From NCBI GenBank assembly GCA_041649045.1, contig JBAZNV010000001.1, forward strand, positions 19,756 through 83,755: a stretch of 64,000 nucleotides of DNA, read 5' to 3'. The position numbers and the translations under genes were made by a program. Under the pieces are notes generated by a model, which saw only the letters and a list, made by a program, of their open reading frames with translations, did not search any database and was not told the origin of the DNA. The stretch comes from Candidatus Pacearchaeota archaeon. GTDB lineage: Archaea > Nanobdellota > Nanobdellia > Pacearchaeales > GW2011-AR1. Below are positions 9,979 through 38,605 of this stretch, in pieces. How positions within the stretch are numbered: position 1 is the first letter of the stretch; every line of letters begins with the position of its first letter.

Positions 9979-10174
9979 ACTGCGACTCCTACAGCTTCGG
10001 AAATATTTCTAAGTCTATCTTGTTCGAGTAATCTTACAAGTCCTTTATTAATTTCTCTGACTATTCCTGGGCCTCTGTAAATCATTCCTGTATAAATTTC
10101 TATCAACTTCGCTCCTGCTTTGATTTTTTCGTATGCATCTTCTGCTCTAAAAATTCCGCCGACGCCAATTATTG
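9975..10174 (-). pseudogene. pyrD: C-terminal remnant (about 66 aa) of dihydroorotate dehydrogenase-like FMN TIM-barrel protein
   Basis: Minus-strand translation [49 protein letters not shown] matches PyrD C-terminus; stop codon immediately upstream, no room for rest of gene. Confidence 0.55.
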
Positions 10175-10188
10175 GCTTTGAGTATATA

Positions 10189-10926
10189 TTAAAATAATCC
10201 TTTTCTTCTTATTCCATTATTCACAATTTCGAATGAAAATTCTTTTTCTGGAATTGACCGATGTTTTCGAAGAATAATTTTTCTTTTTCCATGGAAATTT
10301 TGAAGTTCAATCAAGCATTTGCTCCAGTATTTTAACAAGTCTCCTCCGACCATCGAAACTTGTTTTTCGAGATTTTTTTCTTCTTCGTTTTGAATGAATG
10401 ATGCATATACCTGGTTTGTGACTATTATTGGAATATTTTGTTTTCGAGCTATTTCGTTTAAAGTTCTGAGTTGATTCGCTAATTTTCGGTTTACTTCGGA
10501 AATTTTCTGTATTTCGCCGGAACTTATTGCGAATCCGAGCTCGAGACGATAAAGCATCGCAATACTATCGATTATAATGAGGGAAACGTCTCCTTTTTTT
10601 ACGTGAGAAAGCAGTATTCCGAAAGATTTTTCTTGTTCTTCAAATGAAGTGGGCTTAAGCAAAAGAATTTTTTCAAGTGATTTTTCAATTTCTTCTTTTG
10701 TTCCTTGATGAATTTGTTTGAATCTATCGGTTGAAAAACCTCCTTCGCTGTCAATAAAAATAACTTTATTTCCTTTTTTGGCCTGTGAAACGGCAGCTAT
10801 AGCACAAAAATTGGATTTTCCGGAACCGCCTGGGCCATAGAGCGTGGTAATTATGTCATTCTCGTAACCGCCTTCAAGAAATTTATTTAAATCGTAAGAT
10901 CCTGATGAAATTTTCAATTCTGTCAT
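10189..10926 (-). CDS. radB: DNA repair and recombination protein RadB (RecA-family)
   Basis: Walker [10 protein letters not shown], about 245 aa with no N-terminal HhH domain. Confidence 0.75.
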
Positions 10927-10965
10927 AAAATTTTAAAATTAAGAAGTATTTAATAATTTAGATAA

Positions 10966-11220
10966 TTATTTTAATTTTTTGAAGGAGTCAATGGCCGAAT
11001 CAATTTCTTTTTCAAGTTGTGCGATTGCGTCTTTGAGCGTTTTTTTCGCGTTATCAGATTCTATATGTAATATTGGATTTTTAGATGGATGGTCTCTTCT
11101 CCATGTCGCAATTTTGGCATCGTTTTTGTTGAGGTATGCTCTTAAAACTTCTGCGATTGTAAGACTTCCAAGCTCGATATCAAGTTCAGTTTTTTCGTCT
11201 TTAAGTATTTTGATTTCCAT
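10966..11220 (-). CDS. rpoL: DNA-directed RNA polymerase subunit L (Rpo11)
   Basis: MEIKILKDEKTELDIEL...HPSKNPILHIESD pattern of RpoL; start reassigned to internal Met to avoid overlap. Confidence 0.7.
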   Translation of the reverse strand: MEIKILKDEKTELDIELGSLTIAEVLRAYLNKNDAKIATWRRDHPSKNPILHIESDNAKKTLKDAIAQLEKEIDSAIDSFKKLK

Positions 11221-11273
11221 TAATATATGGAATAAAATTGGTTTAAAAGCGTTTTGGTTTATGGGGCTTTGTC

Positions 11274-17323: not shown

Positions 17324-18232
17324 TTATATATTTTTAAAAATTAGAACTATGGATATAAGAATTAATATAACAAAAATAATCAAAACATAGTGAATCCAGC
17401 TCAAATTTTCGAAAAAATTTGAGGTTTGTGCTTCCTTGATTGCAGAATCCGAGTCGTTGCCCAAATTTATTGAAGAGCTTGTGGCTTTATTAGATGTAAA
17501 TATTACAGGGGTTTCATCTTCAATTTCTCTAACTACAGTTCTTTTAGAATCTGAAGTTGATTTTGACGTTTTTTCACTGTCGAAAATCGAATTTCCCAAA
17601 CTGCCATCGGAATTTATTATGAATAGTTTTATTGTGTAAATTTTATTTTCTTTCAAATTTTCTGCTTTGTATGAATTTTCTTCGCTTGACAAATTAACCT
17701 TGTTAATTTCATTGATATAGACGGCTATGCCGGAAAAATTTTCAGATGGGTTTTCCCATTCCCATAAAATCCATGATTTGGATTTGTCTGCAACTTTCAA
17801 GTTTGAGATTGTGAAATCCGCAGTTTCATTTTGTTGTTCGCTATATACATAAAAAGCAATCCCTTCAGGAGTCCAAACATTATTAGCATAAGTTTCAAGA
17901 ATATGATTTTTTTCATTTTCATCAGCTGTATAGAAATGTGAACTTGTCAATGGACTCCAAAACCTATACACCGGCACTGTATTCTCCTGTTGTTCGCTAT
18001 ATACATAAAAAGCAATCCCTTCAGGAGTCCAAACATTATTAGCATAAGTTTCAAGAATATGATTTTTTTCATTTTCATCAGCTGTATAGAAATGTGAACT
18101 TGTCAATGGACTCCAAAACCTATACACCGGCACTGTATTCTCCTGTGCAGAAACAGTCATCGCTCCTAAAACTAAAAAAAGCACCAACGCCAATACTGTT
18201 TTTGTTAACTTGTTTTCCATCTTAATTATCAC
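17324..18232 (-). CDS. secreted surface protein with two identical DUF5648-like (YRFW...HFYT) repeats and C-terminal TM anchor
   Basis: Signal peptide; 52-aa unit VYRFWSPLTSSHFYT...GIAFYVY repeated twice; C-terminal TM. Confidence 0.6.
   Translation of the reverse strand: MIIKMENKLTKTVLALVLFLVLGAMTVSAQENTVPVYRFWSPLTSSHFYTADENEKNHILETYANNVWTPEGIAFYVYSEQQENTVPVYRFWSPLTSSHFYTADENEKNHILETYANNVWTPEGIAFYVYSEQQNETADFTISNLKVADKSKSWILWEWENPSENFSGIAVYINEINKVNLSSEENSYKAENLKENKIYTIKLFIINSDGSLGNSIFDSEKTSKSTSDSKRTVVREIEDETPVIFTSNKATSSSINLGNDSDSAIKEAQTSNFFENLSWIHYVLIIFVILILISIVLIFKNI
17833..18144. repeat. perfect 156-bp tandem duplication (2 copies) inside surface-protein gene
   Basis: 17833..17988 identical to 17989..18144. 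Confidence 0.9.
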
Positions 18233-19451: not shown

Positions 19452-19467
19452 ATAGCCCCTCCAGGAT
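19452..19467 (+). repeat. att-like direct repeat (distal copy of tRNA-Gln 3' end)
   Basis: Exact 16-mer match to tRNA-Gln 3' terminus. Confidence 0.6.
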
Positions 19468-19498
19468 GTCTGAGGATTTTGTATCAGTATTGTGGAAC

Positions 19499-20353
19499 TC
19501 ATATTTTTGTACCTTTTATTTTAAGTTCAGATTCAGGCCATTCTTTGAATATTTTTTCAGGATTTGCTTCCAAATTTTTGATCAAGTCTTTCGTTTGTTT
19601 AATCATATTTTTAAGATTATTGATTGCTTCCTTTTTTCTTGGATTTTTGCTTTTTTTAACATACTCCATGTATTTATTAAATCGGCGTATGTTTTCATAA
19701 AAACAATCTATTTTGTCATTATTAAGAGATTTATTAAAATATAATGACTTCCTTTTTTTGCGATTAGAATTTTTTTCAGTAAAATCATAACTTCCGTGAA
19801 ACAACCCGAAATCGTAAGGCTTGAAATTATTCTCCTCCTTATTCTCTCCGCGATATTTTTCAGTACACTTATCTATAATTCTTCTGCGATATTCTTCCCA
19901 TTCTGCCTCATTATTTTTTTCTGCTGAAGGATCAAGTTTTTTCAAAAATTCAGAATTAAATGACATAAAAACAATGTTGTTTATTTTTTCTAACGGAAAT
20001 TCCTCCTTAAGAAAGGTATATTTCGCCGGTAGGAAAAATATTTTTTGATTATTTTTAGGATGAAATTCATCAATCAAAAATTTCGGAAATGATTTTACTC
20101 CTAATGTGCCCGAATCGCCTCCAAGTTTAGATATTTTTTTATAATATTTAGAATTGTATTTTCCACCGTTCTTTTTGAATTCATCAAGTTGTTTTTGATC
20201 GCAGACCTTCTCTATAGATATGAGTTCGTCATCAAAATTTGAAAAAGCCAATAAATCCTTATGTTGCCATTTAATTTCGTTTAACATTTGTTTTGGAATT
20301 GTGAACATCTCTTGTTTTCCTCCTCTTTTCAATTTGCTTTCATTGGTGTACAT
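19499..20353 (-). CDS. hypothetical Lys-rich protein (element cargo)
   Basis: ORF only; no recognisable domain. Confidence 0.4.
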   Translation of the reverse strand: MYTNESKLKRGGKQEMFTIPKQMLNEIKWQHKDLLAFSNFDDELISIEKVCDQKQLDEFKKNGGKYNSKYYKKISKLGGDSGTLGVKSFPKFLIDEFHPKNNQKIFFLPAKYTFLKEEFPLEKINNIVFMSFNSEFLKKLDPSAEKNNEAEWEEYRRRIIDKCTEKYRGENKEENNFKPYDFGLFHGSYDFTEKNSNRKKRKSLYFNKSLNNDKIDCFYENIRRFNKYMEYVKKSKNPRKKEAINNLKNMIKQTKDLIKNLEANPEKIFKEWPESELKIKGTKI

Positions 20354-20463
20354 AATGTAGCTACATTGTGTCTATTTTTAAAACTTGCTATTTAGATACT
20401 TTTAGGATACTCACTATTCCGTTACGGCAAGTATTTTTAAAACAAAAAAACACAGAGGAGCTC

Positions 20464-20919
20464 ATGACGAAAGGACTTTATTCATTATTTCTGAGAAGAT
20501 TGTCAGAAATAAAATCCAGAAAAGAGATAATCCCTTTTCCGATGGTTTTTTCAAAATTGTGCAGTTGTTTCTCGATTACAAAAGCAGAATGCTGGGAGAT
20601 TCTTTTCCTGCTCCGGGATGTAGAATTTATTGAGATCATTCGAGCGCATGGAGTAAAAATTTTAAATAAAGATTATGAGGAACGAAATATTTCTGAGTCC
20701 CAGAAGTATTGCATTAGCAAGTGTTCTAAATGTAATAAAAATTTCAGAGCAAAGATTGCTGTTCGGGAAACATGTAACGAATGTGAAGAAAAATGGAAAG
20801 ATGAATTGGAAAATAAAGTTAAAAAAAGATTAAAGGATGATGAGAAAAATGGATTCAAAAATCCCGAATGGATAATTAAGCTTCAGGAAATAATGAAGGA
20901 AAAAGGAAATGAGTTTTAA
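20464..20919 (+). CDS. hypothetical protein with putative winged helix and C-terminal Cys4 zinc ribbon
   Basis: CSKCNKN...CNECEE; start at ATG 20464 preceded by GGAG. Confidence 0.4.
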   Translation: MTKGLYSLFLRRLSEIKSRKEIIPFPMVFSKLCSCFSITKAECWEILFLLRDVEFIEIIRAHGVKILNKDYEERNISESQKYCISKCSKCNKNFRAKIAVRETCNECEEKWKDELENKVKKRLKDDEKNGFKNPEWIIKLQEIMKEKGNEF

Positions 20920-20990
20920 TTTTACGTCTACAGCATAAAGAAAAATTTAATCGGTATAGACATATCGTTATAGTATATCGTAGAGGATTA

Positions 20991-22241
20991 TCATCTCCAG
21001 AATTGTCTTATAGAAAGACCTTGCAGTCCTTTTTTACTTGGGTCATCTTTGTCCCCTACTCTTCGGGCATATAGGATTGGAGGAACTCTCTGACTTACAC
21101 TATTGTACCCTAACGAAAAAGCTCTTATTTGATAAAAATCATGATCTACATCTAAACCGACAGCAATACCTTTCTTTTCTGCAACTTCTTTTCCCCAGGC
21201 ATATCTAAACATTACTTCCAATACTGCTTTTCCTAAAAGAGTAGCACCTTGATTTTTAATAAATAATTCTTTTGCATCTTTCAAGTCTTTTTCGGAAAAA
21301 CTTTTCCGTCCATCAAGTTTACCGAATTTCATAAGTCTCATCATAACTTTTTGACAATCTTGCGCAATATCTCTAAAATCGCCAGAAATATTCTCTACAT
21401 CTAAATCTCTCCAGGAAACGCCAAATTCACTTAAACATAATTCTTCTGCACGCTGATAAGTAATTACCGCATCCCTTGGATAGACGGTCAATCCTTTTTC
21501 TGAAGAATCCTCTGCTATTCTTTCAAGATCTTTGAAATGGGTATTCATTGTATCTCTTAAATCCACAAGTCTTCCTTCTGAATAATATTTTAAAAAAACT
21601 TGAGGGAAAACCGAGTTCATTCCTCTTGGCTCCCCACTAAACTGGTGAATATTAATATTGCCCTGATGAGATGCCGAATTTCTTATTATTCCTTTCAAGA
21701 GATTTATTGCTCTTATCGAATAGACTGGGTCAATCTCTGGTCGGAGAGTATCTCTGCCTTTTTCTCTGCTTTGTTTATGTGCGCATAAATAAGTAGATAT
21801 ATTAACCGGATCTCCAGATAGGCATCTCTCAGTAAAAGAAACTAAATAAGAAAATGGATTTGTATCATTCCTGCTTATCCCATTATAATTTATTTTAAAT
21901 CCACTAATTAAATAAGGGAATAAACCAAAAATTTCCTCAAGACCAAGATTACTCCTTGTTCTCTTATCTAAACATTCAAACAAGTGTCGAGCAACTTTTA
22001 CTTCATCTCTCAACGGAATCTTCCCAGTAATCAACGCTACTATGGAAGACATTACCCTTTCCCACCTTTGGGGATTTTTTTGTGGAACTAAATTTAATTC
22101 AGAGATATCTCTTTTTGAAACCTGAAGATGCTCATTGCCGTATAGCAATTTGTTAGCTTCATTGATTGCCTCTTTAATATAAAGTTGTTGTGTTTCAAAT
22201 ACTGACCCGTCTGGCCTTAAGCTATAAATTGCCAAGCTCAT
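20991..22241 (-). CDS. hypothetical protein (416 aa), higher-GC block
   Basis: No recognisable motif; co-oriented and overlapping with HDAC-like gene. Confidence 0.45.
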   Translation of the reverse strand: MSLAIYSLRPDGSVFETQQLYIKEAINEANKLLYGNEHLQVSKRDISELNLVPQKNPQRWERVMSSIVALITGKIPLRDEVKVARHLFECLDKRTRSNLGLEEIFGLFPYLISGFKINYNGISRNDTNPFSYLVSFTERCLSGDPVNISTYLCAHKQSREKGRDTLRPEIDPVYSIRAINLLKGIIRNSASHQGNINIHQFSGEPRGMNSVFPQVFLKYYSEGRLVDLRDTMNTHFKDLERIAEDSSEKGLTVYPRDAVITYQRAEELCLSEFGVSWRDLDVENISGDFRDIAQDCQKVMMRLMKFGKLDGRKSFSEKDLKDAKELFIKNQGATLLGKAVLEVMFRYAWGKEVAEKKGIAVGLDVDHDFYQIRAFSLGYNSVSQRVPPILYARRVGDKDDPSKKGLQGLSIRQFWR

Positions 22242-23181
22242 TTAATTTTCCCTCCAATCGACCAATATTTAAATTGAATCTTGCTAAAACTTCTTTAGTG
22301 GAATAGGTTAGCTCTTCTGGCTTTGACTGTTTGCCATTTACTCCCTCAACAAAGGATTTCGCACAAATTAAAACATCTTCGTGATATCCTCCTTCTAATA
22401 CCGCAAAAATAGGATAACCCAACCGCGAGAGATTGAATCCAAACTGCATATACCCTGCAACACTATAATTCAAATCCAGCAATCTATCTTTAAAATATCC
22501 ATCAAATCCTGCAGAGACCCCGATTACATCTGGTTTAAATCTATCTATTTGTTTTTTAAAAAACTCTAAAGACCCTAAAAGAATATCGTCACCAGATTCT
22601 GGAGGAACTGGCAAATTTAAATTTAATCCTTTTGCTTCTCCATATCCTATACGAGTTATATCCCCACTGCGACTTGCATAACTTCTATCCTGGAAAACTG
22701 AACACAAGAGAAGATGAGGATTTTTATAAAAAATTTTTTCTGTCCCATTTCCATGATGACCATCTATATCTATTATGCAAACTCTCTTCCCAGAATCAAT
22801 TAACTTTTGAGCAGCTATTGCTATGTTGTTTAAAAAACAAAATCCTTCAGAGACGTCTCTACTGGCATGATGTCCCGGTGGGCGAGTTAGAGCAAACAGT
22901 CCTTCTTGAGACGCCTTAATTGCCTGTCTTACTGATGAATAAATTGCAGGAAGTGTTTTCTCATCAGGCAATATCTCCGCCAATCGGACTTTGGTTTTAC
23001 AATGACCTTTTATTTTTTTTAAAAGTGTTTGACTATGTACTCTCAAAATATCTTTCTCAACATTAGATTCTAAATGGACTCTTTCCGCTACTTTTTCTAC
23101 TCCATCTAAACGATAATTCCCATCAGCATTTTTTTCTTGAAAATTATATTCTAAGGAAAGAGGATCATAGATTAGTTTCAT
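22222..23181 (-). CDS. histone deacetylase-family amidohydrolase (HDAC/AcuC/APAH-like)
   Basis: RPPGHHA, IDIDGHHGNGT, EGGY motifs. Confidence 0.75.
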   Translation of the reverse strand: MKLIYDPLSLEYNFQEKNADGNYRLDGVEKVAERVHLESNVEKDILRVHSQTLLKKIKGHCKTKVRLAEILPDEKTLPAIYSSVRQAIKASQEGLFALTRPPGHHASRDVSEGFCFLNNIAIAAQKLIDSGKRVCIIDIDGHHGNGTEKIFYKNPHLLLCSVFQDRSYASRSGDITRIGYGEAKGLNLNLPVPPESGDDILLGSLEFFKKQIDRFKPDVIGVSAGFDGYFKDRLLDLNYSVAGYMQFGFNLSRLGYPIFAVLEGGYHEDVLICAKSFVEGVNGKQSKPEELTYSTKEVLARFNLNIGRLEGKLNELGNL

Positions 23182-25087
23182 CTTTTACAATCCTCCTCGC
23201 TAAAGCCTCTAAGCTTTCGGAATCGAAAGAAAAATGTTTTATTAGGTCTTCTATGCTCCCTGTTTCCCCAAAGTTAAATCCATGACCGTGAATTGTCGAA
23301 GGACGAGATATCCTATTGCCGAAAACTGCTGAAGCCACAAGGGATTTTAAAATCTCTGCGTTACCATTATAAACTGTTAAAACAGGCCGATCATTTTCTA
23401 TGAGGTTTAAAAATTTACTATTTTCCAAGCCTTTAAGGTTTATAGCATTAATCACTCTTGATCCTATGGCATGTCTTACTTCTAATTGTTTAGCTGCTTC
23501 TACTAAATTAGGCACAACAAAACCACTTCCAATAAGGGTAATATCTGGTTTGGAGTCACTCTCAAAAACTTTATAAAAATCAATATTACGCTCCTCCCTC
23601 TTTTCCCGAATTAAACGAGTCACATTGGCTTTATGAGTTCTCACAATAGTAAGGGCTTCATTTGTACTAAAAAAATGATCGAATACATTATACATGTCTT
23701 GAACATCTGCAGGTTCGTAGAATTTAGTTCCCGGCATAAATAATGGTACAGCTGAGACCCCAGATGCTTGATGGGTTTGCCCATTTTTTCCTTGAGTAAT
23801 TCCGCTTAATTCTGACAATAAAAGAAACTTACTTCTTCCTTGAGCAGCAGCATTAAGTTGATCTGATGCTCTGTATAGAAAAGCATCAAAATAATTTATA
23901 AATATCCTTGCGTTTTTGTCGGTTTGAGAGATCCCATGAGCCATAGCCACAGTGTGTTGCTCTCTCAACCCAGTATCAATGTAAGTACTTCCATCTCTCA
24001 ATCTTAAATCTTGTACATCTGATTCATGGATTAAATCGGGAGTAATAAAAAACAAAGGCATACCTTTTGATTTTGATTCAACCATCAATTTAAAAAAATA
24101 ATCTCCTTGCGCTGAGTCCATGTTTTTACTATTTTCGGGATTAATAGGTATACTTATTAGATATTCTCTGTTTTCATCGGGAATTCCCCTCGATGATTTT
24201 TTATTGAATTCCTTTCTTTTTTCTTGTAGTATTCTTTCCAATTTGCCCCTATCTGCTCTCATGCTTCCTAATTCAATCGCTGAAGAAAGAGCAGACACTT
24301 CTTTTAAGGCACCGATAGTATGAAAGCCATTAAAATGATTTTCACAACCGTCAATCAGGTAGCCTTTAGTTGTATTGGCGATAATAAAAACTGGTTTATT
24401 TCTTTTTCTTGCTAAGTCATAAGCCGAAAGAATTTCAGAAAAATCATGCCCATTTTCAATTCGTAAAACATCCCAGCCATACCCCTTCCAAACCATCCCA
24501 ACATCAGAAGAATCAACCTCATTAGTGGGTCGAGACAACTGCTTACCATTTTTATCGAGAATGCATATTATGTTGGGCAAACCTAAAGACCCAATATGCC
24601 TTGCTGCCTCGCTAACATTTCCTTCTTGTTCTTCCCCATCCCCTAAAAAAACATAGTGCATGGAAGGAAGACCCTTTTGGCGAGTTATTAGCGCAGATCC
24701 CGTCGCATAAGAAAGTAGCATTCCTAAAGACCCGCTGGGGCTCATATCAACTCCAGGCACAGAATGCATACATTCATGACCTTTAAGCCTGGACCCAAGA
24801 GTCCTATAGCCTGACAATTCTTCCTCATTTATCCAATTAAGAAGGGAAAAAATTTTATATCGCAATGGTCCAATATGACCTCTAACGTAAACCCTATCTC
24901 TTGAAGGATTCGAAGGATCATTAGGGTTATAATTTAAAATACCCCCAAAATATAATGCAGTCATTAACTCCACTGAAGAGGAGCAGGCACCAAGATGCCC
25001 GCTCTTTGCATTCCTTATTGTTTTGAAAGCATCGGCTCTTATTTCTCTTGACAAATCCTTTAAATATTCTAAATCCCTGATCGTCAT
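23165..25087 (-). CDS. tkt: transketolase (fused N- and C-terminal halves, bacterial-type, 640 aa)
   Basis: GHLGACSSSVEL...NPSRDRVYVRGH, LGSRLKGH, TPP motif GDGEEQEGNVSEA...ILDKNGKQLSRPT, C-terminal pyrimidine-binding domain. Confidence 0.75.
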   Translation of the reverse strand: MTIRDLEYLKDLSREIRADAFKTIRNAKSGHLGACSSSVELMTALYFGGILNYNPNDPSNPSRDRVYVRGHIGPLRYKIFSLLNWINEEELSGYRTLGSRLKGHECMHSVPGVDMSPSGSLGMLLSYATGSALITRQKGLPSMHYVFLGDGEEQEGNVSEAARHIGSLGLPNIICILDKNGKQLSRPTNEVDSSDVGMVWKGYGWDVLRIENGHDFSEILSAYDLARKRNKPVFIIANTTKGYLIDGCENHFNGFHTIGALKEVSALSSAIELGSMRADRGKLERILQEKRKEFNKKSSRGIPDENREYLISIPINPENSKNMDSAQGDYFFKLMVESKSKGMPLFFITPDLIHESDVQDLRLRDGSTYIDTGLREQHTVAMAHGISQTDKNARIFINYFDAFLYRASDQLNAAAQGRSKFLLLSELSGITQGKNGQTHQASGVSAVPLFMPGTKFYEPADVQDMYNVFDHFFSTNEALTIVRTHKANVTRLIREKREERNIDFYKVFESDSKPDITLIGSGFVVPNLVEAAKQLEVRHAIGSRVINAINLKGLENSKFLNLIENDRPVLTVYNGNAEILKSLVASAVFGNRISRPSTIHGHGFNFGETGSIEDLIKHFSFDSESLEALARRIVKDETNL

Positions 25088-25141
25088 ATAAAATAGGCAT
25101 AGATAGATCTTTAAATATTTATCTAATTATAAAGTAGTAAC

Positions 25142-26146
25142 ATGGATAAGAAAAACATTAAACTCTGGGAAACTAATATTAAAAGATTTATTTTTCATAA
25201 TAAATTATTTAAAAAAAATTTAAAAAAAGATGAAATTAAGATAAAACTTCTTGGCGAAGGCACGAGCACTTTAAACTTTTTAGTAGAGATAAATAAAAAT
25301 AAATTTGTTTTTAGATTTAATGTGAATAATTCTCGCTTAGATCATTTCAAGAAAGAATACAAGTTCTTTAATCTATTTAAAAAAAATAAATTTATTCCTC
25401 AATTGATCTATAAGGATTTAAGTTTAGAAAACATTTTCAAAAGACCATTTATGATTCTTCTTTATATAAAAGGAATTTCTCTCGCCAAAACCCATTACAA
25501 AATAAGTAGCAAGCTTATCAAAAATCTCGCCAAAGAAGTTTCGAATATTCATTTATTAAATAAAAATCCCTTGTTTCTAAAAGAGGAGTGCGTAAAAGAC
25601 AGGATAGAAAACAGGCTAATATTTTTAAAAAAAAGTCTTCCCGTAGAATCAATAAACTGCCTCAGAAAAATTTGTAGCCTATTGCCTGTAATTCCAATAT
25701 CAATAAAGAAAAAATTGATAATCCATAATAACATTTGGGAAGGTAACATTATTTATTATAAAGGAGGACTAAGAATTATTGATTATGAAACTGCCTGTTT
25801 TGGAGAACCTGCTCAGGAGATAGCCCATATATTTGTAGATTTTAAAACAGGATATTTATTTTCAAAAGAAGAACAAAATATTTTCATAAAGGAATATTTA
25901 AAATATGTTTCAGATAAAACTCTTCTTGAAAAAGTAAACTTCTTTATGAAATTTGAAGCATTTGATTCTTTTCTTAGAACTATAGAATACGATCTTGCCT
26001 CTAAAAACAAACTAAATAATCAAATCTTAAGAGATACTATGAAGAGTAATTCTGGCAGGAAAAAACTAAGAAGTTACTTTAATTTACTAAAAAAATTAGA
26101 AATTATTGATAAAAAATACTCTTTAAAGAAGATTTATCCTGTATAG
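25142..26146 (+). CDS. phosphotransferase-family protein (APH/choline-kinase-like fold); catalytic-loop Asp appears replaced (HNN instead of HxD)
   Basis: IHNNIWEGN ... IIDYE motif arrangement of APH-like kinases. Confidence 0.5.
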   Translation: MDKKNIKLWETNIKRFIFHNKLFKKNLKKDEIKIKLLGEGTSTLNFLVEINKNKFVFRFNVNNSRLDHFKKEYKFFNLFKKNKFIPQLIYKDLSLENIFKRPFMILLYIKGISLAKTHYKISSKLIKNLAKEVSNIHLLNKNPLFLKEECVKDRIENRLIFLKKSLPVESINCLRKICSLLPVIPISIKKKLIIHNNIWEGNIIYYKGGLRIIDYETACFGEPAQEIAHIFVDFKTGYLFSKEEQNIFIKEYLKYVSDKTLLEKVNFFMKFEAFDSFLRTIEYDLASKNKLNNQILRDTMKSNSGRKKLRSYFNLLKKLEIIDKKYSLKKIYPV

Positions 26147-26478
26147 ATTGCAAAAGATTTTGGAGTTTCCCAAAGTCTCAATTCATATAATCCCTTAAGC
26201 TTTTTTCTTAACCTTCCCCATATCCAGATGATAACATTCTCTACTGTGGGATTTGGAACATAGTCATTTAAACATTGGTGATCTAAGATAGAAATAGCTT
26301 CTTTATTAACAATTCCTTCTATTTCTTTTAAATCCATTAAGATACCCTTTTTATTCAATTTACCAGTTATAAAAACTTGAAGTCGATATGTATGCCCATG
26401 AAGATTTCTACACTTTCCTTCATGCCATTCAAGATGATGAGCCGAGTCAAATGTAAACTCTCTAACGAGACTAATCAT
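26134..26478 (-). CDS. queD: 6-pyruvoyl-tetrahydropterin synthase / QueD-family protein
   Basis: FTFDSAHHL...GKCRNLHGHTY signature. Confidence 0.7.
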   Translation of the reverse strand: MISLVREFTFDSAHHLEWHEGKCRNLHGHTYRLQVFITGKLNKKGILMDLKEIEGIVNKEAISILDHQCLNDYVPNPTVENVIIWIWGRLRKKLKGLYELRLWETPKSFAIYTG

Positions 26479-26965
26479 CCGAACTCTCCTCGATCTTATC
26501 CATTCCGTTCAGCATTAAAATAGCCTTTTCACACATCATCTTAATAAAATTCGTTTCTTCCGACGTCACTTTTTTCTTAGACAACAAAATTTCAAGAAAA
26601 TCTTCATTTAGAATACTTATTTTATCGGCAATCTGCATAATCTTTCCCTCTCTTGAATATGGATTTTTACCATTACCGTGATTAAGAATACAATCTTCAT
26701 CAACCTCATCCAAATAAATTTCTTCCTCTTTAAGAATCTTAAGGGAATTATCTGCGTGATTTTGCATATCATTAAGAAAATATCCAATATCATGAACCCA
26801 TGCTCGAGAAACCATTTTGTCCTCATTAAGTTTAAATCTCTTTGATAAAATTTTTACTGCAGAAACAACTCCCTGAGTATGAGCAAAGAAAAAATCTCCA
26901 TCAGTTGTTCTTTTATCTAAAAGATATTTTTTCGCAATTTTTTCAGCTCTCAATGGGTCTAACAT
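26471..26965 (-). CDS. HD-domain (HDIG) phosphohydrolase
   Basis: WVHDIGY motif, His/Asp pattern. Confidence 0.6.
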   Translation of the reverse strand: MLDPLRAEKIAKKYLLDKRTTDGDFFFAHTQGVVSAVKILSKRFKLNEDKMVSRAWVHDIGYFLNDMQNHADNSLKILKEEEIYLDEVDEDCILNHGNGKNPYSREGKIMQIADKISILNEDFLEILLSKKKVTSEETNFIKMMCEKAILMLNGMDKIEESSDD

Positions 26966-27022
26966 AAAAACATCTTATTTCTAATGATTAAATATCTTTT
27001 GTTTTCAACAGGGATGGCATGG

Positions 27023-27367
27023 TTAAATCCATTTTTTAAAACTCTCAATTATTGGACTCCACAAATCTCCATTTCCTATTTTTGAGATTATCTCGTTAAT
27101 CGGAGCATAAACAATTTTTTTTACTGATTCATTTTCTTCGATATACTCTTCGCTATCGTCTCCAATTTTTGCAAAACATATAATCTGTTTTTCTTTCTTG
27201 TTGTCATCAATTTTATTTATCATTAAAAATTTCAGCTCGCACCCTTGAATATTTTTTTTAATTTCCTCGATGCATTCTCGATTTGCCGTTTCAATAACTG
27301 ATTCACCTTCCTCGACATGTCCTCCAGGAAATCCCAAATATCTCTTTTTGAGCGTCAGTAAATGCAT
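27023..27367 (-). CDS. NUDIX hydrolase, probably N-terminally truncated
   Basis: Nudix box [25 protein letters not shown] begins at residue 12; closed frame immediately upstream. Confidence 0.55.
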
Positions 27368-27506
27368 CGGATATATATTTTAAAAAAATTAGCCCAAGAA
27401 CCACGTGCTTATATTCTGCAGCATCCATATTGCTTTGAAGCTTATCCGCTGCTTGCCAAAGCTTCTGCTCAAACCCGATTTCCCCATTCGTTTGCGACAT
27501 GTTCAA
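27303..27506 (-). pseudogene. hsdM: fragment: N-terminal domain of type I restriction-modification methylase HsdM
   Basis: [36 protein letters not shown] matches HsdM_N consensus; ORF then diverges and stops; no N6-MTase domain follows. Confidence 0.6.
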
Positions 27507-27603
27507 ACAAAAAATCCAAAGTTTTTATGGCTTTGCTTAATTTAATAAATGCGAAAAGTATATAAACCCTTTATGTCTTAAAAAGACATCAATAAGGAAT
27601 AAT

Positions 27604-28653
27604 TTGACATTTAAATGTCCGATCAACATTATGGAAATAAAATATACATTTTGGAACAATAAAGGAGGCACTGGGAAAACTAGCCTTGCTTTTCAGTCTA
27701 TTACAAGATATGCTGAAAAATACCCGGATAAAAAAATTTTAGCAATAGATATTTGCCCACAAGCCAATTTGTCTGAATTAATGTTAGGCGGATTAAACAA
27801 TCATGGTAGCGAGAGATTATTATATTGTCATGGACAGGTGCCGCGATGCAGCCTTGGGGGGTATTTTCAACTTCGTTTACCTTCTCCGTATATTCCACCA
27901 GATTTTAATGCTCATGATTTTATAACCAAACCGAGCACATATAATGGTGCGATACCTTCAAATATAGACTTGGTATGTGGAGATCCTTTATTAGAATTAC
28001 AATCAAATGCCGTAAATAGTTTAGCCAACAACTCTATACCTGGCACAAATACTTGGATTGGAGTTGTTGATTGGTTAAATGATTTTTTAAAAAAAATTAA
28101 AGATGACTATGATGTTGTTTTTATGGACTGCAATCCAAGTTTTTCTATGTATACGCAAATTGCATTAGCAACGACAGATAGAATTATTTTGCCTGTAATG
28201 GCAGACGATTCTTCACGTCGTGCAATTCAAAATGCATTATCTCTTGTATTCGGATTGAGGCTTCCTTCAGAGATATATGCTAATTACGCTTTCGCTACAA
28301 AACTCAAGGAATCAAAACGCAAGCTTCCAAAAGTACATTTAATAGTAAAGAATCGTTTAACTCAATACATGGTACCCGCATCCGCCTATGCTGCCGTATT
28401 GAATACAATTGAAAGTGATATCCGAGGATTATTATTAACAAATTCAGAAATTTTTTCATTTACAGACGTTAATGAAGGATTTGTAGAAATTAGAGATTTC
28501 CAAACTACTGGAGTTGTTGCATTTGCCAAGGGATTGCCATTTTCAAAAGTGGATATTGGAAAGCAAACTATTGGAGGACATAGAGTCCAAGTAAATCGAA
28601 ATTATTTAACAAATAGCAAGAATGCAATAGAGTTGTTAGTTAATAAATTATAA
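27604..28653 (+). CDS. ParA/MinD-family ATPase with about 100-aa C-terminal extension
   Basis: Deviant Walker A NKGGTGKTS, ILAIDICPQANLSE, DYDVVFMDCNPS; probable start at internal Met 27631. Confidence 0.65.
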   Translation: MTFKCPINIMEIKYTFWNNKGGTGKTSLAFQSITRYAEKYPDKKILAIDICPQANLSELMLGGLNNHGSERLLYCHGQVPRCSLGGYFQLRLPSPYIPPDFNAHDFITKPSTYNGAIPSNIDLVCGDPLLELQSNAVNSLANNSIPGTNTWIGVVDWLNDFLKKIKDDYDVVFMDCNPSFSMYTQIALATTDRIILPVMADDSSRRAIQNALSLVFGLRLPSEIYANYAFATKLKESKRKLPKVHLIVKNRLTQYMVPASAYAAVLNTIESDIRGLLLTNSEIFSFTDVNEGFVEIRDFQTTGVVAFAKGLPFSKVDIGKQTIGGHRVQVNRNYLTNSKNAIELLVNKL

Positions 28654-28914
28654 AATTAATTTTTTTGCTTCTTTCAAAACATCCTTGCCTTTTTTTGTTA
28701 TTTTATAAAACTTAAAAACTCTATCTCCGGGATTTTTACAAACAATAAGTTTTTTCTCAATTAATTCCTTTAATGCCCTTGACGTATGTGCCTTGTACAT
28801 CCCCGTTGTTTTCATTAGTTCTACTTGGCTTCTTTCTCTTTCGTTTAACAATTCTAATAACTCCAATCTCCTTTGTCCTCTCGCAACATAGCTAATCAAA
28901 CTTGAATCACCCAT
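28648..28914 (-). CDS. winged-helix transcriptional regulator (ArsR/MarR-like)
   Basis: RLELLELLNERERSQVELMKTTGMYKAHTSRALKELIEKKLI wHTH pattern. Confidence 0.55.
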   Translation of the reverse strand: MGDSSLISYVARGQRRLELLELLNERERSQVELMKTTGMYKAHTSRALKELIEKKLIVCKNPGDRVFKFYKITKKGKDVLKEAKKLIL

Positions 28915-29008
28915 ATACCAAACGAGTGACCAAATCTTTTATTATGGGGTTACCTTATGAGTTACCAATATTAACAACATTTAAAAAACCCAGAAACCTC
29001 AGAAACAT

Positions 29009-29473
29009 ATGCAAGAAAAAAATAAATCGTGGTTTCGACGACATAAAATTCTCGGATCAATAATTGGTTTTTTTCTTTTTGTTATTGGAATTGGGATAAT
29101 ATCAAATCTAAACTCAGAAAATTCTCCCACGCCTGAGCATAATTACATTTGCCCAGAACTTTCAAATTCAAAAATTTTAGCTTACGATAGTTTTGTTCAG
29201 TTATGGAATGTCGAAGTTTCTGTTTATAAAACTAATAACACCGAGGTAATTTATCCTTATAGTCTAACTTCAACTATAATTTATTGCAATCCGGCTACAG
29301 AAGAAGGTCAAAATGCCAACTGGGTTTATTGTGGAGATACCTTTAGACCTATTATCGCTCAATATACCGACAAATCAGGAAGTATCATTAGGAAACGAAG
29401 TGTGGAAATAATTCTTGACAAAAATACGAAAGAATACGTTTCTACAAAATGCGACAGTTATAATTTATTGTAA
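29009..29473 (+). CDS. hypothetical secreted/membrane-anchored protein
   Basis: N-terminal TM/signal; no domain. Confidence 0.4.
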   Translation: MQEKNKSWFRRHKILGSIIGFFLFVIGIGIISNLNSENSPTPEHNYICPELSNSKILAYDSFVQLWNVEVSVYKTNNTEVIYPYSLTSTIIYCNPATEEGQNANWVYCGDTFRPIIAQYTDKSGSIIRKRSVEIILDKNTKEYVSTKCDSYNLL

Positions 29474-29483
29474 ATTTGATTTT

Positions 29484-30437
29484 ATGGAAAATAAAATAAC
29501 ATTCAAAAAACTCGTGGAACTTGTTCTTGAAGAAGCAAAGCAACCATTAACGCCTTTGGAAATTTGGGGAAAGGCTCAGGAAATGCATTTAACTGAAAAA
29601 CTTGGAACCGTCGGTAAAACACCTCATCTGACAATTAGTGCTCAACTTTATGTCGATATTCGCGATAATCCGAAATCTCCTTTTTACCAATTCAGTAGTC
29701 GCCCTGGAAGATTTTTCCTTAAAAAATACAAATCCGGTTTTAAACCCGAGGAAATACCCCTCGAAGAAGAAACAGAAGAAACAAAAACAAAATACCACGA
29801 ACGCGACCTGCATCCTCTTCTTGTAAAATTTGTTAATTCCGCTCCAAACTTCAAAGCTCACGTAAAAACAATTTACCATGAAATAGCGATGAGAAATAAA
29901 AAGGGATTGAATAAATGGCTATATCCTGATTTGGTCGGTGTTCATCTACCATTCCTCGATTTTGATGTACATACATTACAAGTGCAGAAGGAACTTTACT
30001 GGACCGCAGTTCGTTTTTTTAGTTTCGAAATGAAAAAGGAATTAAACATTGGAAATCTCCGTGAATGTTATTTTCAGGCTGTCTCAAACTCTAACTGGGC
30101 AAATGAAGGCTATCTTGTTGTTCTTAACATAATTGATCAGGATGGTGAATTAATGTCGGAGCTTAGAAGATTAAATAATGCCTTTGGAATCGGAGTTATT
30201 CAACTAAATTCCATTGAAATAAATGAGAGCGAGATAATTCTTCCAGCCAAGATAAAACAGGAACTTGATTGGGATACAATTGATTTATTACTGAAAAAAA
30301 ACGGAAATTTCAAAGAGTTCATGGAAATCGTCAAAGGCGACATTACGCTTGGCAAAATTTCAAACAAAGACAATTATGACTCTATAATTCCGGATGAAGC
30401 TTTTCAAGAGTATATTGAGGAGAAGGGGATTGTTTAA
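29484..30437 (+). CDS. HARE-HTH domain fused to PD-(D/E)xK restriction-endonuclease-like nuclease domain
   Basis: HARE-HTH: LTPLEIWGKAQEM...GKTPHLTISAQLYVDIRDNPKSPFYQFSSRPGRFFL; nuclease motifs HERD, YPDLVGV, FEMKK. Confidence 0.6.
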   Translation: MENKITFKKLVELVLEEAKQPLTPLEIWGKAQEMHLTEKLGTVGKTPHLTISAQLYVDIRDNPKSPFYQFSSRPGRFFLKKYKSGFKPEEIPLEEETEETKTKYHERDLHPLLVKFVNSAPNFKAHVKTIYHEIAMRNKKGLNKWLYPDLVGVHLPFLDFDVHTLQVQKELYWTAVRFFSFEMKKELNIGNLRECYFQAVSNSNWANEGYLVVLNIIDQDGELMSELRRLNNAFGIGVIQLNSIEINESEIILPAKIKQELDWDTIDLLLKKNGNFKEFMEIVKGDITLGKISNKDNYDSIIPDEAFQEYIEEKGIV

Positions 30438-30525
30438 GTCAATATCCGACCAAAATTCCCGACCCCTGTGAACATTGAGAAATATCTGATTTTTTCATGT
30501 TTCATTCAATTCTACGCTGAAAAAA

Positions 30526-30544
30526 GCGAATATTCGCGAATATT
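30526..30544. promoter_or_regulatory. overlapping perfect palindromes (gcgaatattcgc / aatattcgcgaatatt) between convergent nuclease and methylase genes, followed by T-run
   Basis: Read directly from sequence; possible bidirectional terminator or operator. Confidence 0.4.
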
Positions 30545-30552
30545 TTCATTTT

Positions 30553-31200
30553 TTACCTCAGTTTCATTGGGTTGTTTAGTTCGTCTTTTGCTCTATTTCC
30601 TGTCAAATTTTCCCATCTTTCTATGATATGTGAGCAAAAATTGGGATCAATCTCTATTAAAAAGCAGTTTCTTTTCTTGTTTTCGCATGCTATTAGTGTT
30701 GAACCGCTACCGCCAAAAACATCAAGTACGTTTTCTTCTTGCCTTGTGCTGTTTATAATAAAGTGTTCTGCTAATTTTGCGGGTTTCTGGGTTGGATGGA
30801 TGTATGTGTTTGTCCCCTGTCCCCTCTGAATTTCTTTTCTTTGTAATAAAAATAAAGCATTGGCTCGTATTGTGAATGATAATCTCTTGTTGGTATTGAG
30901 AAGCCGTTCTTTACCCACATAATAAATGTTGGCCTGTATCCCAGGTTCTTCATACACCAAGGGTATATTTGTTCGATTTGATTTGTTCCGCAGCACATAT
31001 AAACTGCGCCTTTTACGATTCCTGTGTTGATTAAATCGAGCAATGTTGTTATCTGGAAGTTTACATCATTCATTATTCCGCCAAGCATATTTTTACTCCT
31101 TCCGCCTTTTCTTCTTGCTTCTGGTATGTAGTTTACGCTGTATGGCGGGTCTGTCCATCATATCTGCTTTCTGCCCGGAAGAAAGCTTCATTGCAGTTAT
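30553..31200 (-). pseudogene. beta-class (N6A/N4C) DNA methyltransferase disrupted by at least two frameshifts
   Basis: Motifs in three frames: DPPYS (upstream of annotated ATG, preceded by in-frame TGA), IMWVKNG...HSQYEPMLYF (frame A), HPTQKP...DVFGGSGST (frame B); shift within G-run agaggggacaggggac. Confidence 0.65.
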
Positions 31201-31274
31201 CTGCAAATTGAACAATGCAAAAATTGAACAGTAAACGTATAACTTATATGGAAACGTTAATAAAAATAAAAATT

Positions 31275-31775
31275 TTAAAATGGAGTGGTTATTTTTTGCT
31301 CTTTTTCTAATTTAAGTACCCAACTTATTATTTCAATATCTTTTCCAAGTTCGGTTAATATAAAATAGTGGGTCTTTGCTGCGAAATACTCCATTTGTCG
31401 CTTAGCCATTTTTGAACTCCATTCCTTAAATTTATCCATCACAATTTTATTATCTCCTTGTAAGTTGTCTACATTCCAAATATCCATTATCGAAATTTGT
31501 TTCAAAAGTCCTAATTCAATAAGGGAATAAAGATAATTATAAGCAGTGTTCTTTGACATAAATAATTTTGTTACAAATTCACCAATTCTTCCTGGAGAAT
31601 TATTAAGTAAAACTCCATACGTTTTCCTCAGTTTACTTTTCTCTTTTAACATTCTTTTAATTAACTCTTTTTTATAAGAATGACCTTCCATTGTTTCTTT
31701 GATTTCCAACGCAAGTTCTTCAAATGTCCTTGAGCCCTTCTCTCTTTTTTCAATTCTTATGTTTGGCACATCCAT
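31275..31775 (-). CDS. hypothetical protein with putative winged helix (element-encoded regulator/replication protein)
   Basis: Start at internal Met with GGAGG upstream; TAYNYLYSLIELGLLKQ helix. Confidence 0.4.
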   Translation of the reverse strand: MDVPNIRIEKREKGSRTFEELALEIKETMEGHSYKKELIKRMLKEKSKLRKTYGVLLNNSPGRIGEFVTKLFMSKNTAYNYLYSLIELGLLKQISIMDIWNVDNLQGDNKIVMDKFKEWSSKMAKRQMEYFAAKTHYFILTELGKDIEIISWVLKLEKEQKITTPF

Positions 31776-31831
31776 CTTCCTTGCCCTCCTTCTCCATAAT
31801 CTCAATCATCTTTTGCACAAGAGGATTCAGT

Positions 31832-31972
31832 TCACTTCTCTTCATCTCTACTATCCCCCTCTTCAATGAGAAATCTTATTGTGTCGCCTCGAGTTCGTCG
31901 AAATTTTTTTGCTAACCTGTCGAGCTTTTCTCTCGTTGCTGTATCTAACCTGAAATTAAATGTTGTATTCAT
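31832..31972 (-). CDS. ribbon-helix-helix (CopG/Arc family) protein, 46 aa
   Basis: Not in ORF track (below the 60-aa cutoff); MNTTFNFRLDTATREKLDRLAKKFRRTRGDTIRFLIEEGDSRDEEK fits beta-alpha-alpha RHH. Confidence 0.55.
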   Translation of the reverse strand: MNTTFNFRLDTATREKLDRLAKKFRRTRGDTIRFLIEEGDSRDEEK

Positions 31973-32025
31973 AATAATTACAAGGGAATATGGTATTTAC
32001 GGAGTTACAAACAAAAAGTATCTAA

Positions 32026-33243
32026 TTATTCCACCAGGTTAATAATTTGCTTTAGAGAGCTGACCACGTCCTTTCTTTCTCTTAAAAAACTCATCAGAGC
32101 TACTTCGGTGCTTTCAATTCTTGATTTGTTTACTTCAACTATTACCTCTCCTTCAAGTCTTCTGACCTCAAGTTGTTTTTCCATCTCTTGTTGCTTTCTA
32201 AGTAACTCTGCCATCGCCGAGCTTATAACATCAAGCTTTGTTTTCAATTCTTTGTTTTCATTCTCGGTTTTTACAAAATTATCTCCGGCAAGTTTTATTG
32301 TCTCATCATCTATCAATCCATTCATGTCAATATATCTATCTGGCATTTTTGATGATGCTGACCAGCCATATCTGTAAGAAATCTGAAATCTGTTAAGATG
32401 GTTCGCGTAATAAGTCGCTGATCCGTGCCTGAAAGTATGAGGTGAAATCATTCTACTAAGAAATTGTTTACCCATTCTGTTTGTATATTTTCTCAGGGTC
32501 CCGTAATTTATCGTACATAAAAAATCCTCTTCTCCAAATTTATTCATTTGCAGATATTCGTCAATTATTTTCGGATACAGCGGAAGATTTATTGTTCTCG
32601 GTTTAGTTTTTGAAATTCTTATTCTGACTTTGTAAACTCCATTTTCTTTCACGATGTCGCTCCTTTTGATGTTATAAAATTCTTCGATTCTTGCTCCACT
32701 GTCAAATAAAACAGCTAAAATAAATCGGTAAATTAATTTAGACGAATTTTCTATCAATCGGTCGTTCTCTTGTTTGCTCAAACTTCTGACTTCCGGCATT
32801 CTTGTACTTGTGTCGATGTATTGGACGAGTTTGGGATAATTCTCTTTGTCTCCGAGAAGATATTTGTAATATTTTCTGATAAACTTTTTTATTGTAGACT
32901 GCGTTTCCCATGTGTAAGGATTCCCTTTGGAAGATTTTACAATTCCTCTTTCAAGATTTAGAATAAATGTGTTCATATCGTCTTCTGTGACCTTATCGAA
33001 CGGTTTCTTTAACCACTCGCGATCCATATTCAAAAGTATACCAAGCATTCGCTGCAGCCTTCCAGGCTTGATTTTTCTCTTCTGTCCTTTAAGAATTGTC
33101 TTTCCGATTTCTGCGTCGTATAAAAACTGTAAAATCAAATTTCTGTTCTCAGGAATTAATAACCTGGTCGACCCTGATCTTAGTTTTTCCAACGATCGAT
33201 AATATTTATCTGGGTTTTGGAGTCTGACTATTTTGTCGTCCAT
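32026..33243 (-). CDS. int: tyrosine-type site-specific recombinase/integrase
   Basis: C-terminal catalytic residues: R...HTFRHGSAT...RYGW...Y; adjacent to tRNA gene. Confidence 0.8.
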   Translation of the reverse strand: MDDKIVRLQNPDKYYRSLEKLRSGSTRLLIPENRNLILQFLYDAEIGKTILKGQKRKIKPGRLQRMLGILLNMDREWLKKPFDKVTEDDMNTFILNLERGIVKSSKGNPYTWETQSTIKKFIRKYYKYLLGDKENYPKLVQYIDTSTRMPEVRSLSKQENDRLIENSSKLIYRFILAVLFDSGARIEEFYNIKRSDIVKENGVYKVRIRISKTKPRTINLPLYPKIIDEYLQMNKFGEEDFLCTINYGTLRKYTNRMGKQFLSRMISPHTFRHGSATYYANHLNRFQISYRYGWSASSKMPDRYIDMNGLIDDETIKLAGDNFVKTENENKELKTKLDVISSAMAELLRKQQEMEKQLEVRRLEGEVIVEVNKSRIESTEVALMSFLRERKDVVSSLKQIINLVE

Positions 33244-33327
33244 GGAATATTAACGAAAACCTCCGATATAGTTTTTTAGACTTGAAAAGTATCTAAAATG
33301 TTCCGCAAAACAGGGACAGAAACTTCC

Positions 33328-33343
33328 ATAGCCCCTCCAGGAT
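33328..33343 (+). repeat. att-like direct repeat (proximal copy, overlapping tRNA-Gln 3' end)
   Basis: Identical 16-mer to 19452..19467. Confidence 0.6.
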
Positions 33344-33401
33344 TCGAACCTGGGTCACGGGAGTCAGAGTCCCGTATCCTTGACCGCTAGACTAAAGGGC
33401 T
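33329..33401 (-). tRNA. tRNA-Gln (anticodon CUG)
   Basis: Manual fold: acceptor AGCCCUU/AGGGGCU, anticodon stem CGGGA/UCCCG loop CUCUGAC, T-loop GGUUCGAAUCC. Confidence 0.75.
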
Positions 33402-33556
33402 ATAGAAAATTCAGAAAAAGAAAGTTTAAAAGTTTAGTGGACCTTTAAATTCATTTGTAAAATTTTAGAGAAACTTGCTTGCGTGAATGGCAATGATTGT
33501 GAAAATTAGCGCATTCTTTTAAAAAACTTTATAATGTATGTTGGTTTTAATATTTC

Positions 33557-38604: not shown

Positions 38605-38605
38605 T

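Follow-up and report, generated by a model that had tools for sequence, protein, structure and literature searches.

What do a fused transketolase, a deacetylase-like hydrolase and a protein of unknown kind do together, in three overlapping genes of a Candidatus Pacearchaeota archaeon? The question is raised by positions 20991-25087 of a 64,000-nucleotide stretch of its genome (assembly GCA_041649045.1, contig JBAZNV010000001.1, positions 19,756 to 83,755), which we analysed as a whole and call the window. In our analysis, this block represents one of the architectures taken by a modular metabolic cluster with a patchy distribution in DPANN archaea and in bacteria of the candidate phyla radiation (CPR, or Patescibacteria). 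At its core, the module has a fused and divergent transketolase-like (TK-like) enzyme dependent on thiamine diphosphate (ThDP), paired with a protein that we call X, replaced in some lineages by a truncated LeuRS-like paralog. The remaining slots are exchangeable. One is filled by an enzyme that transforms GTP and forms pterins (FolE, FolE2, QueD/PTPS, or a MoaA-like radical-SAM protein), another by a reductase of the RibD_C/DHFR-like, SDR, FMN_red, or Pyr_redox_2 type, and a third by an HDAC-like hydrolase, a small alpha/beta hydrolase, or an S51 peptidase; an APH-family kinase and NUDIX/HD phosphohydrolases take the rest. We tentatively propose, rating it a little below an even chance, that the module serves to build or alter a pterin-type small molecule derived from GTP.

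The open reading frames (ORFs) lie exactly where the initial annotation had placed three overlapping minus-strand genes. They encode the TK-like enzyme, a fused member of its ThDP-dependent family (23165-25087, 640 aa), a zinc hydrolase resembling HDACs and acetylpolyamine amidohydrolases (22222-23181, 319 aa, overlapping the TK-like gene by 17 nt), and protein X (20991-22241, 416 aa, overlapping the HDAC-like gene by 20 nt). The two overlaps argue for co-translation of the TK-like enzyme with the HDAC-like protein and X, and the sequence supports reading the three genes as one translationally coupled unit. Ahead of the TK-like gene, a 54-nt, A/T-rich intergenic region (25088-25141) separates it from a divergent APH-family gene. 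This region, read directly, contains the TATA-like stretches TTTAAATA and TTATAAA and is a putative promoter region.

As a unit, the trio had been drawn too narrowly. In the window the gene order is NUDIX-HD-QueD/PTPS, then the APH-like gene, then TK-like-HDAC-like-X, so the trio forms the distal half. The six-gene order HD-PTPS-APH-TK-HDAC-X is repeated in three other contigs (loci L001, L002, and L007), with proteins 45-70% identical. The conserved block thus adds APH, QueD/PTPS, HD, and NUDIX genes to the trio, and across the family GTP cyclohydrolase I and reductases join it.

Profile scans for X located 5 loci in genomes and 12 in metagenomes. For a census, the neighbours of X in 29 X-bearing loci were labelled by similarity and Pfam, and dereplication at 90% identity left 18 groups. 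A TK-like gene lay within six genes of X in 14 of the 18 (two of the four groups without one are contigs of about 2 kb), and a hydrolase of any kind in 15 (HDAC-like in 6, a 174-aa alpha/beta hydrolase in 8, and others). Reductases (RibD_C/DHFR-like, SDR, FMN_red, or Pyr_redox_2) were present at this distance in 13 groups, APH kinases in nine, and FolE, FolE2, or PTPS/QueD in eight. Even X homologs at 23-26% identity still adjoin a TK-like gene (L008, L009, and L028; hhalign probability 99.9-100%). Look-ups started from the TK-like protein in Shapirobacteria and Woesebacteria (45-49% identical) gave the order abh174-X-TK-SDR with FolE alongside. Co-occurrence in other genomes is therefore strong, on both the conserved six-gene order and the census. 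No description of this gene combination was found in the literature searched. The earlier view that the trio fits no standard pathway is supported.

Three loci had no X near the TK-like gene. An X-less archaeal locus reads NUDIX, pyridoxal-phosphate-dependent decarboxylase, TK, HD. The X-less loci L031 (Saccharibacteria; 3287-4768, minus strand) and L035 (9777-11237, minus strand) hold a truncated LeuRS-like paralog of about 490 aa near the TK-like gene. The two paralogs are 30% identical (mutual E=2e-66), have neither editing nor anticodon domains, and reach about 125 bits against a cut-off of 677 for the NCBIfam LeuRS model. The TK-like protein of L035 clusters with Omnitrophica and WS2 sequences, and L031 further holds an HDAC-like gene, a GNAT gene, a guanylate kinase gene, and a MoaA/viperin-like radical-SAM gene. 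These two loci lend independent support to the view that the TK-like enzyme partners an enzyme with the fold of class-I aminoacyl-tRNA synthetases (aaRSs), and to a guanine-nucleotide-derived substrate.

Among the pterin-forming genes, FolE scored above its equivalog cut-off, and FolE2 and QueD just below theirs. An ORF matching DHFR_1/RibD_C adjoins FolE, and an SDR gene adjoins the HD-PTPS pair. Next to the Shapirobacteria cluster (L027), the FolE gene consists of two short ORFs (86 and 97 aa) just downstream of the SDR gene (8929-9606), which points to a possible pseudogene or an assembly frameshift.

At the enzyme level, Pfam finds Transketolase_N, Transket_pyr, and Transketolase_C all in one TK-like polypeptide. 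We aligned the active site of the window protein with E. coli TktA and 11 family members: H26, H66, H100, D155, N185, E411, and H473 (E. coli numbering) are invariant and the GDG...N Mg-ThDP motif is kept. The His261 equivalent is ambiguous, with a conserved His aligning at position 258. By domains and by ThDP-binding and catalytic residues the protein thus belongs with transketolases. It falls short by equivalog score: the best NCBIfam equivalog, NF004559, gave 249.4 bits against a cut-off of 488, and TIGR00232 gave 164.9 against 682. It scored about 140 bits against the nearest solved structures, a human-type short and a split transketolase, and is about 23% identical to E. coli TktA. The chain of three domains and the low equivalog scores bear out the initial annotation, which had singled out a fused 640-aa transketolase as atypical. 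Rooting a neighbour-joining tree with E. coli TktA places the TK-like family in a single long-branched clade.

The differences concentrate in the substrate pocket. In the E. coli and yeast transketolase structures, Arg358, Ser385, His461, and Arg520 are substrate-phosphate ligands and Asp469 is stereo-selecting. The window protein does not carry this set, differing from TktA by R358M, S385P, H461L, D469N, and R520K; three of the four phosphate ligands are thus lost, along with the stereo-selecting Asp. Asn at position 469 is near-invariant across the family, and Arg at 520 is retained in the Microgenomates members. From these residues, the TK-like protein probably retains ThDP-dependent activity, with its substrate pocket re-tooled.

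Protein X had been called a protein of unknown kind, and it matched nothing in Pfam or NCBIfam. A word-indexed search of 5.8 billion clusters returned seven relatives; when 1.84 billion representatives were searched in full with an HMMER profile, the family grew to 118 clusters. In Pfam scans of 50 homologs, no family was common to any two members, even at E=1. The family profile matched no Protein Data Bank sequence, and distant relatives of 500-640 aa are also without domains. By its sequence, X founds an uncatalogued family. A 644-aa distant relative has an extra N-terminal region and no Pfam domain (L032, 7001-8935; L033, 6266-8200), and its neighbours are genes for AspRS/AsnRS-type and GluRS proteins, an M42 aminopeptidase, and a CCA-adding enzyme.

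The confident predicted model of X matches the catalytic domains of TyrRS and TrpRS, cyclodipeptide synthases (CDPSs), PvcA/PIsnA, and MshC, and on this model X has a Rossmann-type fold like that of class-I aaRSs, CDPSs, and isonitrile synthases. The modelled resemblance to the aaRS superfamily is at the level of fold only, because HIGH and KMSKS are absent and hhalign against TyrRS was blank. X also shows no anticodon-binding domain and no CDPS serine motif. Kinship with the LeuRS-like paralog of L031 was considered and rejected, hhalign finding no relationship. The conserved features of X are its own: N128, an invariant C153 in CAH[KR] immediately behind the first core strand, a DxDH motif, YARR following the last strand, and, at the C terminus, RQFWR, which is also invariant. 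CAH[KR] and YARR appear to occupy positions comparable to those of HIGH and KMSKS.

Pfam assigns Hist_deacetyl (PF00850) to the 319-aa HDAC-like protein with E=4.9e-54 (184 bits against a gathering score of 27.9), and its nearest solved relatives are the HDAC6 catalytic domains and acetylpolyamine amidohydrolases. The catalytic set is complete, with the HH dyad, the DxH and Asp zinc ligands, and the Tyr of GGY. PPGHHA, DIDGHHGNG, SAGFDG, and LEGGYH are kept across seven cluster-linked homologs, the exceptions being SLGVDG (L007) and LEGWYH (L008).

The other genes of the window block follow on its right side. The APH/choline-kinase-family gene (25142-26146, plus strand; Pfam APH E=2.4e-10) is divergent to the TK operon and occupies the same position in L001, L002, and L007. 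Its catalytic Asp is replaced by Asn, with HNNIWEGN instead of HxDxxxxN, in the three loci of Pacearchaeota type only, namely the window, L001 (4073-5089), and L007 (1548-2549); other variants are canonical. Judging by the catalytic loop, the Asn-bearing protein may be a pseudokinase, or else a derivative that binds a ligand or has a regulatory role. The APH protein is weakly like thiamine kinase, and an idea of thiamine salvage was dropped as no other gene fits.

Next come a QueD/PTPS-family gene (6-carboxy-/6-pyruvoyl-tetrahydropterin synthase, COG0720; 26134-26478, minus strand, 114 aa; Pfam PTPS E=3.8e-31) and a gene for an HD-domain phosphohydrolase (26471-26965, minus strand, 164 aa; Pfam HD E=1.2e-8), overlapping by 8 nt. 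The former scores 85.8 with TIGR03367 (QueD), just below the cut-off of 89.25, and its CxxxHGH motif reads CRNLHGH. The HD-PTPS pair is conserved in L001, L002, and L007. At the right edge stands a 5'-truncated NUDIX ORF (27023-27367, minus strand, 114 aa) with a visible Nudix box and weak NCBIfam Nudix matches; NUDIX genes also flank the block in L001, L011, L029, and L031. An N-terminal HsdM fragment (27303-27506, minus strand, 67 aa; Pfam HsdM_N E=3.9e-14, profile positions 2-45 of 135) enters the NUDIX ORF out of frame, and the NUDIX ORF has no N-terminal part. This junction reads in the sequence as a recombination or rearrangement scar at the block edge.

How could these enzymes work together? 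FolE, FolE2, PTPS/QueD, and MoaA are pterin-forming enzymes, and the proposal of a GTP-derived, pterin-type product builds on them. Alongside the observed gene content, its conservation, the modelled fold of X, and the active-site status, we infer substrates and an order of steps. FolE and QueD would form a pterin, and NUDIX and HD proteins would trim phosphates. The TK-like enzyme would then act on a carbonyl substrate other than an ordinary sugar phosphate, with ThDP-dependent cleavage of a C-C bond or transfer of two carbons. X would activate or ligate an amino-acid or carboxylate moiety, the HDAC-like enzyme would take off an N-acyl group, and the reductase would set the dihydro or tetrahydro state. 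By analogy, the interchangeable reductase slot may resemble the known non-orthologous dihydropterin reductases. The initial annotation had suggested a sugar- or amine-modifying pathway or an unrecognised accessory system: an accessory pathway still stands, whereas the partners point more to pterin or GTP-derived chemistry.

Several observations weigh against this proposal. The census loci were gathered via X and are thus biased toward partners of X. A pterin gene was within six genes of X in only eight of the 18 groups. The fold match of X is distant (8% identity, Foldseek E about 4e-3); neither HIGH nor KMSKS was visible on inspection of its sequence and alignments, and hhalign against E. coli TyrRS gave a probability of 0.4%, that is, no relationship. 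Basic residues conserved in the TK-like pocket (R517, and K/R at 520) could still bind phosphate. The window APH protein, without its catalytic Asp, does not have the catalytic loop of APH kinases. Finally, the RibD_C proteins match best to riboflavin-type pyrimidine reductases, so the product could be GTP-derived and not a pterin.

This last point leads to an alternative that we consider less probable: a non-pterin GTP-derived compound (a riboflavin/deazaflavin-type pyrimidine, a 7-deazapurine, or an aminoacylated nucleoside-type metabolite), or the catabolic repair or salvage of damaged guanine nucleotides. In its favour, the best scores of the RibD_C proteins are against 2,5-diamino-6-ribosylamino-pyrimidinone reductase, and the window PTPS resembles QueD. 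Variants carry guanylate kinase, NUDIX, HD, and viperin/MoaA-like radical-SAM genes, and aminoacyl chemistry is hinted at by the aaRS-fold enzymes and the S51/M42 peptidases. However, the clusters showed no RibA, RibB, RibH, QueE, or QueC, the enzymes FolE, FolE2, PTPS, and MoaA are all on routes to pterins, and the variable reductase slot (DHFR-like, SDR, or flavoprotein) is reminiscent of non-orthologous dihydropterin reductases. We regard as unlikely that the TK-like protein is an ordinary pentose-phosphate transketolase, anciently acquired from bacteria, with the HDAC-like protein and X as unrelated neighbours in a compact genome. Its ThDP-binding and catalytic residues are all conserved, it is routinely annotated as transketolase, the 64-kb window holds no second transketolase, and a comparative study of DPANN archaea assigned a bacteria-derived transketolase to the pentose phosphate pathway (PMC8407392). 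Yet its score is about half the equivalog cut-off, R358, S385, and H461 are lost, and D469 is Asn. The neighbourhoods examined held no pentose-phosphate or glycolytic genes, with Rpe, Rpi, transaldolase, and aldolase absent from every one of some 20, while X, reductases, and FolE recur. The gene overlaps also speak for its co-translation with the HDAC-like protein and X. In addition, the publication on a closed CPR genome reports housekeeping transketolase genes (plural) that share an operon with aldolase (PMC7143001), and we take these genes to be of the split type. An anti-phage or conflict system, for example one acting by nucleotide depletion or modification, is highly unlikely. NUDIX, HD, and GTP-transforming enzymes do occur in some defence systems, the island of the window has restriction-modification remnants, and the flank of L007 has CTD10/MC6/MC7 genes. 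However, PADLOC gave no match for X, HDAC, TK, APH, PTPS, or HD and only a weak one for NUDIX (candidate PDC-S07), and a ThDP enzyme, a reductase, and an amidohydrolase are a set typical of small-molecule metabolism.

The initial annotation favoured horizontal transfer from a bacterial host or a virus, and we weighed whether the block is a cassette recently imported from either, as cargo of a mobile element. The block had been placed inside an element, and it does lie in DNA bounded by an integrase and a tRNA. A tyrosine integrase gene (32026-33243, minus strand; Pfam Phage_integrase E=9.9e-10) adjoins tRNA-Gln(CTG) (33328-33402, minus strand; ARAGORN and Rfam). The 3'-terminal 16 nt of this tRNA (33328-33343) recur exactly as a direct repeat, ATAGCCCCTCCAGGAT (putative att), at the far boundary (19452-19467, plus strand). 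This repeat has only two matches in the window (0 expected, 100 shuffles), and 19452-33343 is a putative 13.9-kb island integrated at tRNA-Gln(CTG). Serine recombinases near the cluster in L011 and L018, a family that spans domains, and archaeal members that are polyphyletic in the tree would also fit an import. On the other side, third-position GC (GC3) and codon use are native, the island has a GC of 0.335 against 0.339 in the rest of the window, and the closest relatives keep the same gene order. No relative of X was found on IMG/VR viral contigs; the region looks composite, judging by the HsdM/NUDIX scar, and its att repeat is short. Same-lineage best hits with native composition, which the initial annotation itself had set against transfer, are essentially what we found as regards a recent one. 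There is thus no sign of recent import, and we hold it to be improbable.

The base composition itself had been described as visibly GC-rich. The excess and the AT-rich flanks are real: at a GC of 0.363, compared with 0.338 in the window as a whole, the block ranks at the 96th percentile of 4.1-kb windows, and its flanks have 0.301 and 0.284. However, the excess is small and lies in codon positions 1-2. Compared with 64 ORFs, the per-gene GC excess of the trio is just +0.4 to +1.0 standard deviations, its GC3 values (0.25, 0.23, and 0.28) lie below the mean of 0.30, and its synonymous-codon likelihood is ordinary. Gly, Ala, Arg, and Pro make up 23-24% of the block proteins versus 11-13% in flanking ORFs. 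The GC contrast therefore comes from protein composition and unusually AT-rich neighbours, not from a foreign nucleotide signature, and a composition-based case for horizontal transfer was rejected. The codon-usage outliers of the window lie elsewhere: 38564-38911 (plus strand), 55065-55640 (minus strand), 30553-30996 (minus strand), and 59596-60357 (plus strand). The first of them has a GC3 of 0.49 and the lowest synonymous likelihood in the window.

What the relationships do indicate is an older history. The TK-like protein of the window groups with those of L001 and L007, which have the same gene order (bootstrap 50/50), and the named archaeal members (Woesearchaeota, "archaeon") fall elsewhere among bacteria. 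By these sequences, the module is common to both domains through old, repeated exchange, and the sharing with CPR bacteria is real and patchy. This agrees with the statement that DPANN transketolases are derived from bacteria (PMC8407392).

The island further holds genes for a ParA-like ATPase, two winged helix-turn-helix proteins, a HARE-HTH protein, and a DNA-methylase fragment. The methylase remnant (30553-30996, minus strand, 147 aa) matches the N6_N4 DNA methylase domain over its C-terminal third alone. The other genes of the contig are archaeal housekeeping ones (eRF1, RadA-like, Mre11/Rad50-like, RNase J, and Ogg). In L007, positions 7574-12541, directly downstream of the same six-gene block, hold a UPF0020 methyltransferase, a PDDEXK nuclease, CTD10, MC6/MC7, and DUF2326; this is a conflict-system island, and the six-gene block tends to adjoin variable regions. 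Elsewhere in the window, a gene for a secreted-looking DUF5648/fibronectin-III protein (17324-18232, minus strand) contains a perfect 156-nt tandem duplication (17832-18143) that doubles a 52-aa segment.

A bolder version of the pterin proposal, which we consider decidedly unlikely, is that the module gives CPR bacteria and DPANN archaea a so far unrecognised way to a reduced pterin cofactor, folate-like (a one-carbon carrier) or biopterin-like. To our knowledge, these lineages are generally considered unable to make such cofactors. FolE and PTPS/QueD would give a pterin with a keto side chain, which the TK-like enzyme would cleave in place of dihydroneopterin aldolase; benzaldehyde lyase, which cleaves 2-hydroxypropiophenone, is a model for this cleavage. 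The reductase and the APH kinase would process the product, and X would activate it or ligate it to an amino-acid-derived moiety, in place of steps of the FolK/FolP/FolC type.

A large part of microbial diversity belongs to CPR bacteria and DPANN archaea, which are thought to lack the biosynthesis of most cofactors and small molecules. Should the module produce a cofactor or an interaction molecule, the view of what these symbionts synthesise would change, and the transketolase and aaRS-fold superfamilies would each gain a new type of reaction. Metabolic reconstructions routinely assign the "transketolase" genes of these lineages to the pentose phosphate pathway (e.g. PMC8407392). The widespread fused TK-like family is consistently set in a different module, with new aaRS-fold proteins and pterin-forming genes. 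At minimum, this flags a systematic annotation error, and the four to seven small genes are tractable for heterologous expression. What is new here, within known enzyme superfamilies, is a TK-like subfamily, an aaRS-fold family, and an undescribed conserved module.

Compared with known systems, the TK-like enzyme shares with canonical transketolases (E. coli TktA, human-type short, and split) the PP/Pyr/C architecture, the GDG...N motif, and the equivalents of His26, His66, His100, His473, and Glu411. It differs in its identity to TktA, its equivalog score, its changed substrate residues, and its context of X, reductases, and FolE rather than pentose-phosphate genes. X, as modelled, is like the non-translational enzymes with a class-I aaRS fold (CDPSs, PvcA/IsnA isonitrile synthases, MshC, and GluQRS) in having no anticodon-binding domain, and the truncated LeuRS-like paralogs fill the equivalent neighbourhood in L031 and L035. 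It differs from them in having no detectable sequence relationship, no HIGH or KMSKS, and no CDPS serine motif, and from CDPSs in being about 200 aa larger, with Cys153 in CAH[KR], DxDH, and RQFWR instead.

For the proposed pathway, the closest comparison is the tetrahydrobiopterin/folate pterin branch (GTP cyclohydrolase I, PTPS/QueD, sepiapterin reductase/FolM/DHFR, and NudB): FolE/FolE2, PTPS/QueD, SDR/DHFR-like reductases, and NUDIX genes recur in the clusters, whereas FolB, FolK, FolP, and FolC were not seen in them. We know of no role for a ThDP enzyme, an aaRS-fold protein, or an HDAC-like hydrolase in known pterin pathways. In natural-product pathways, enzymes like transketolase or pyruvate dehydrogenase E1 donate a C2 unit, as do QncN/QncL in quinocarcin biosynthesis. 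Our module would resemble these in setting a transketolase-family enzyme in a specialised biosynthetic cluster, possibly to pass a C2 unit to a thiol (here the invariant Cys of X), and differs in having no lipoyl or acyl carrier protein and no non-ribosomal peptide synthetase. Finally, the HDAC-like protein is of the same family as acetylpolyamine amidohydrolases and bacterial HDAC-like amidohydrolases, with the complete catalytic apparatus. It differs from them in its setting, its gene being, from the overlaps, translationally coupled to those of the ThDP enzyme and X, and other variants of the module add or substitute alpha/beta hydrolases.

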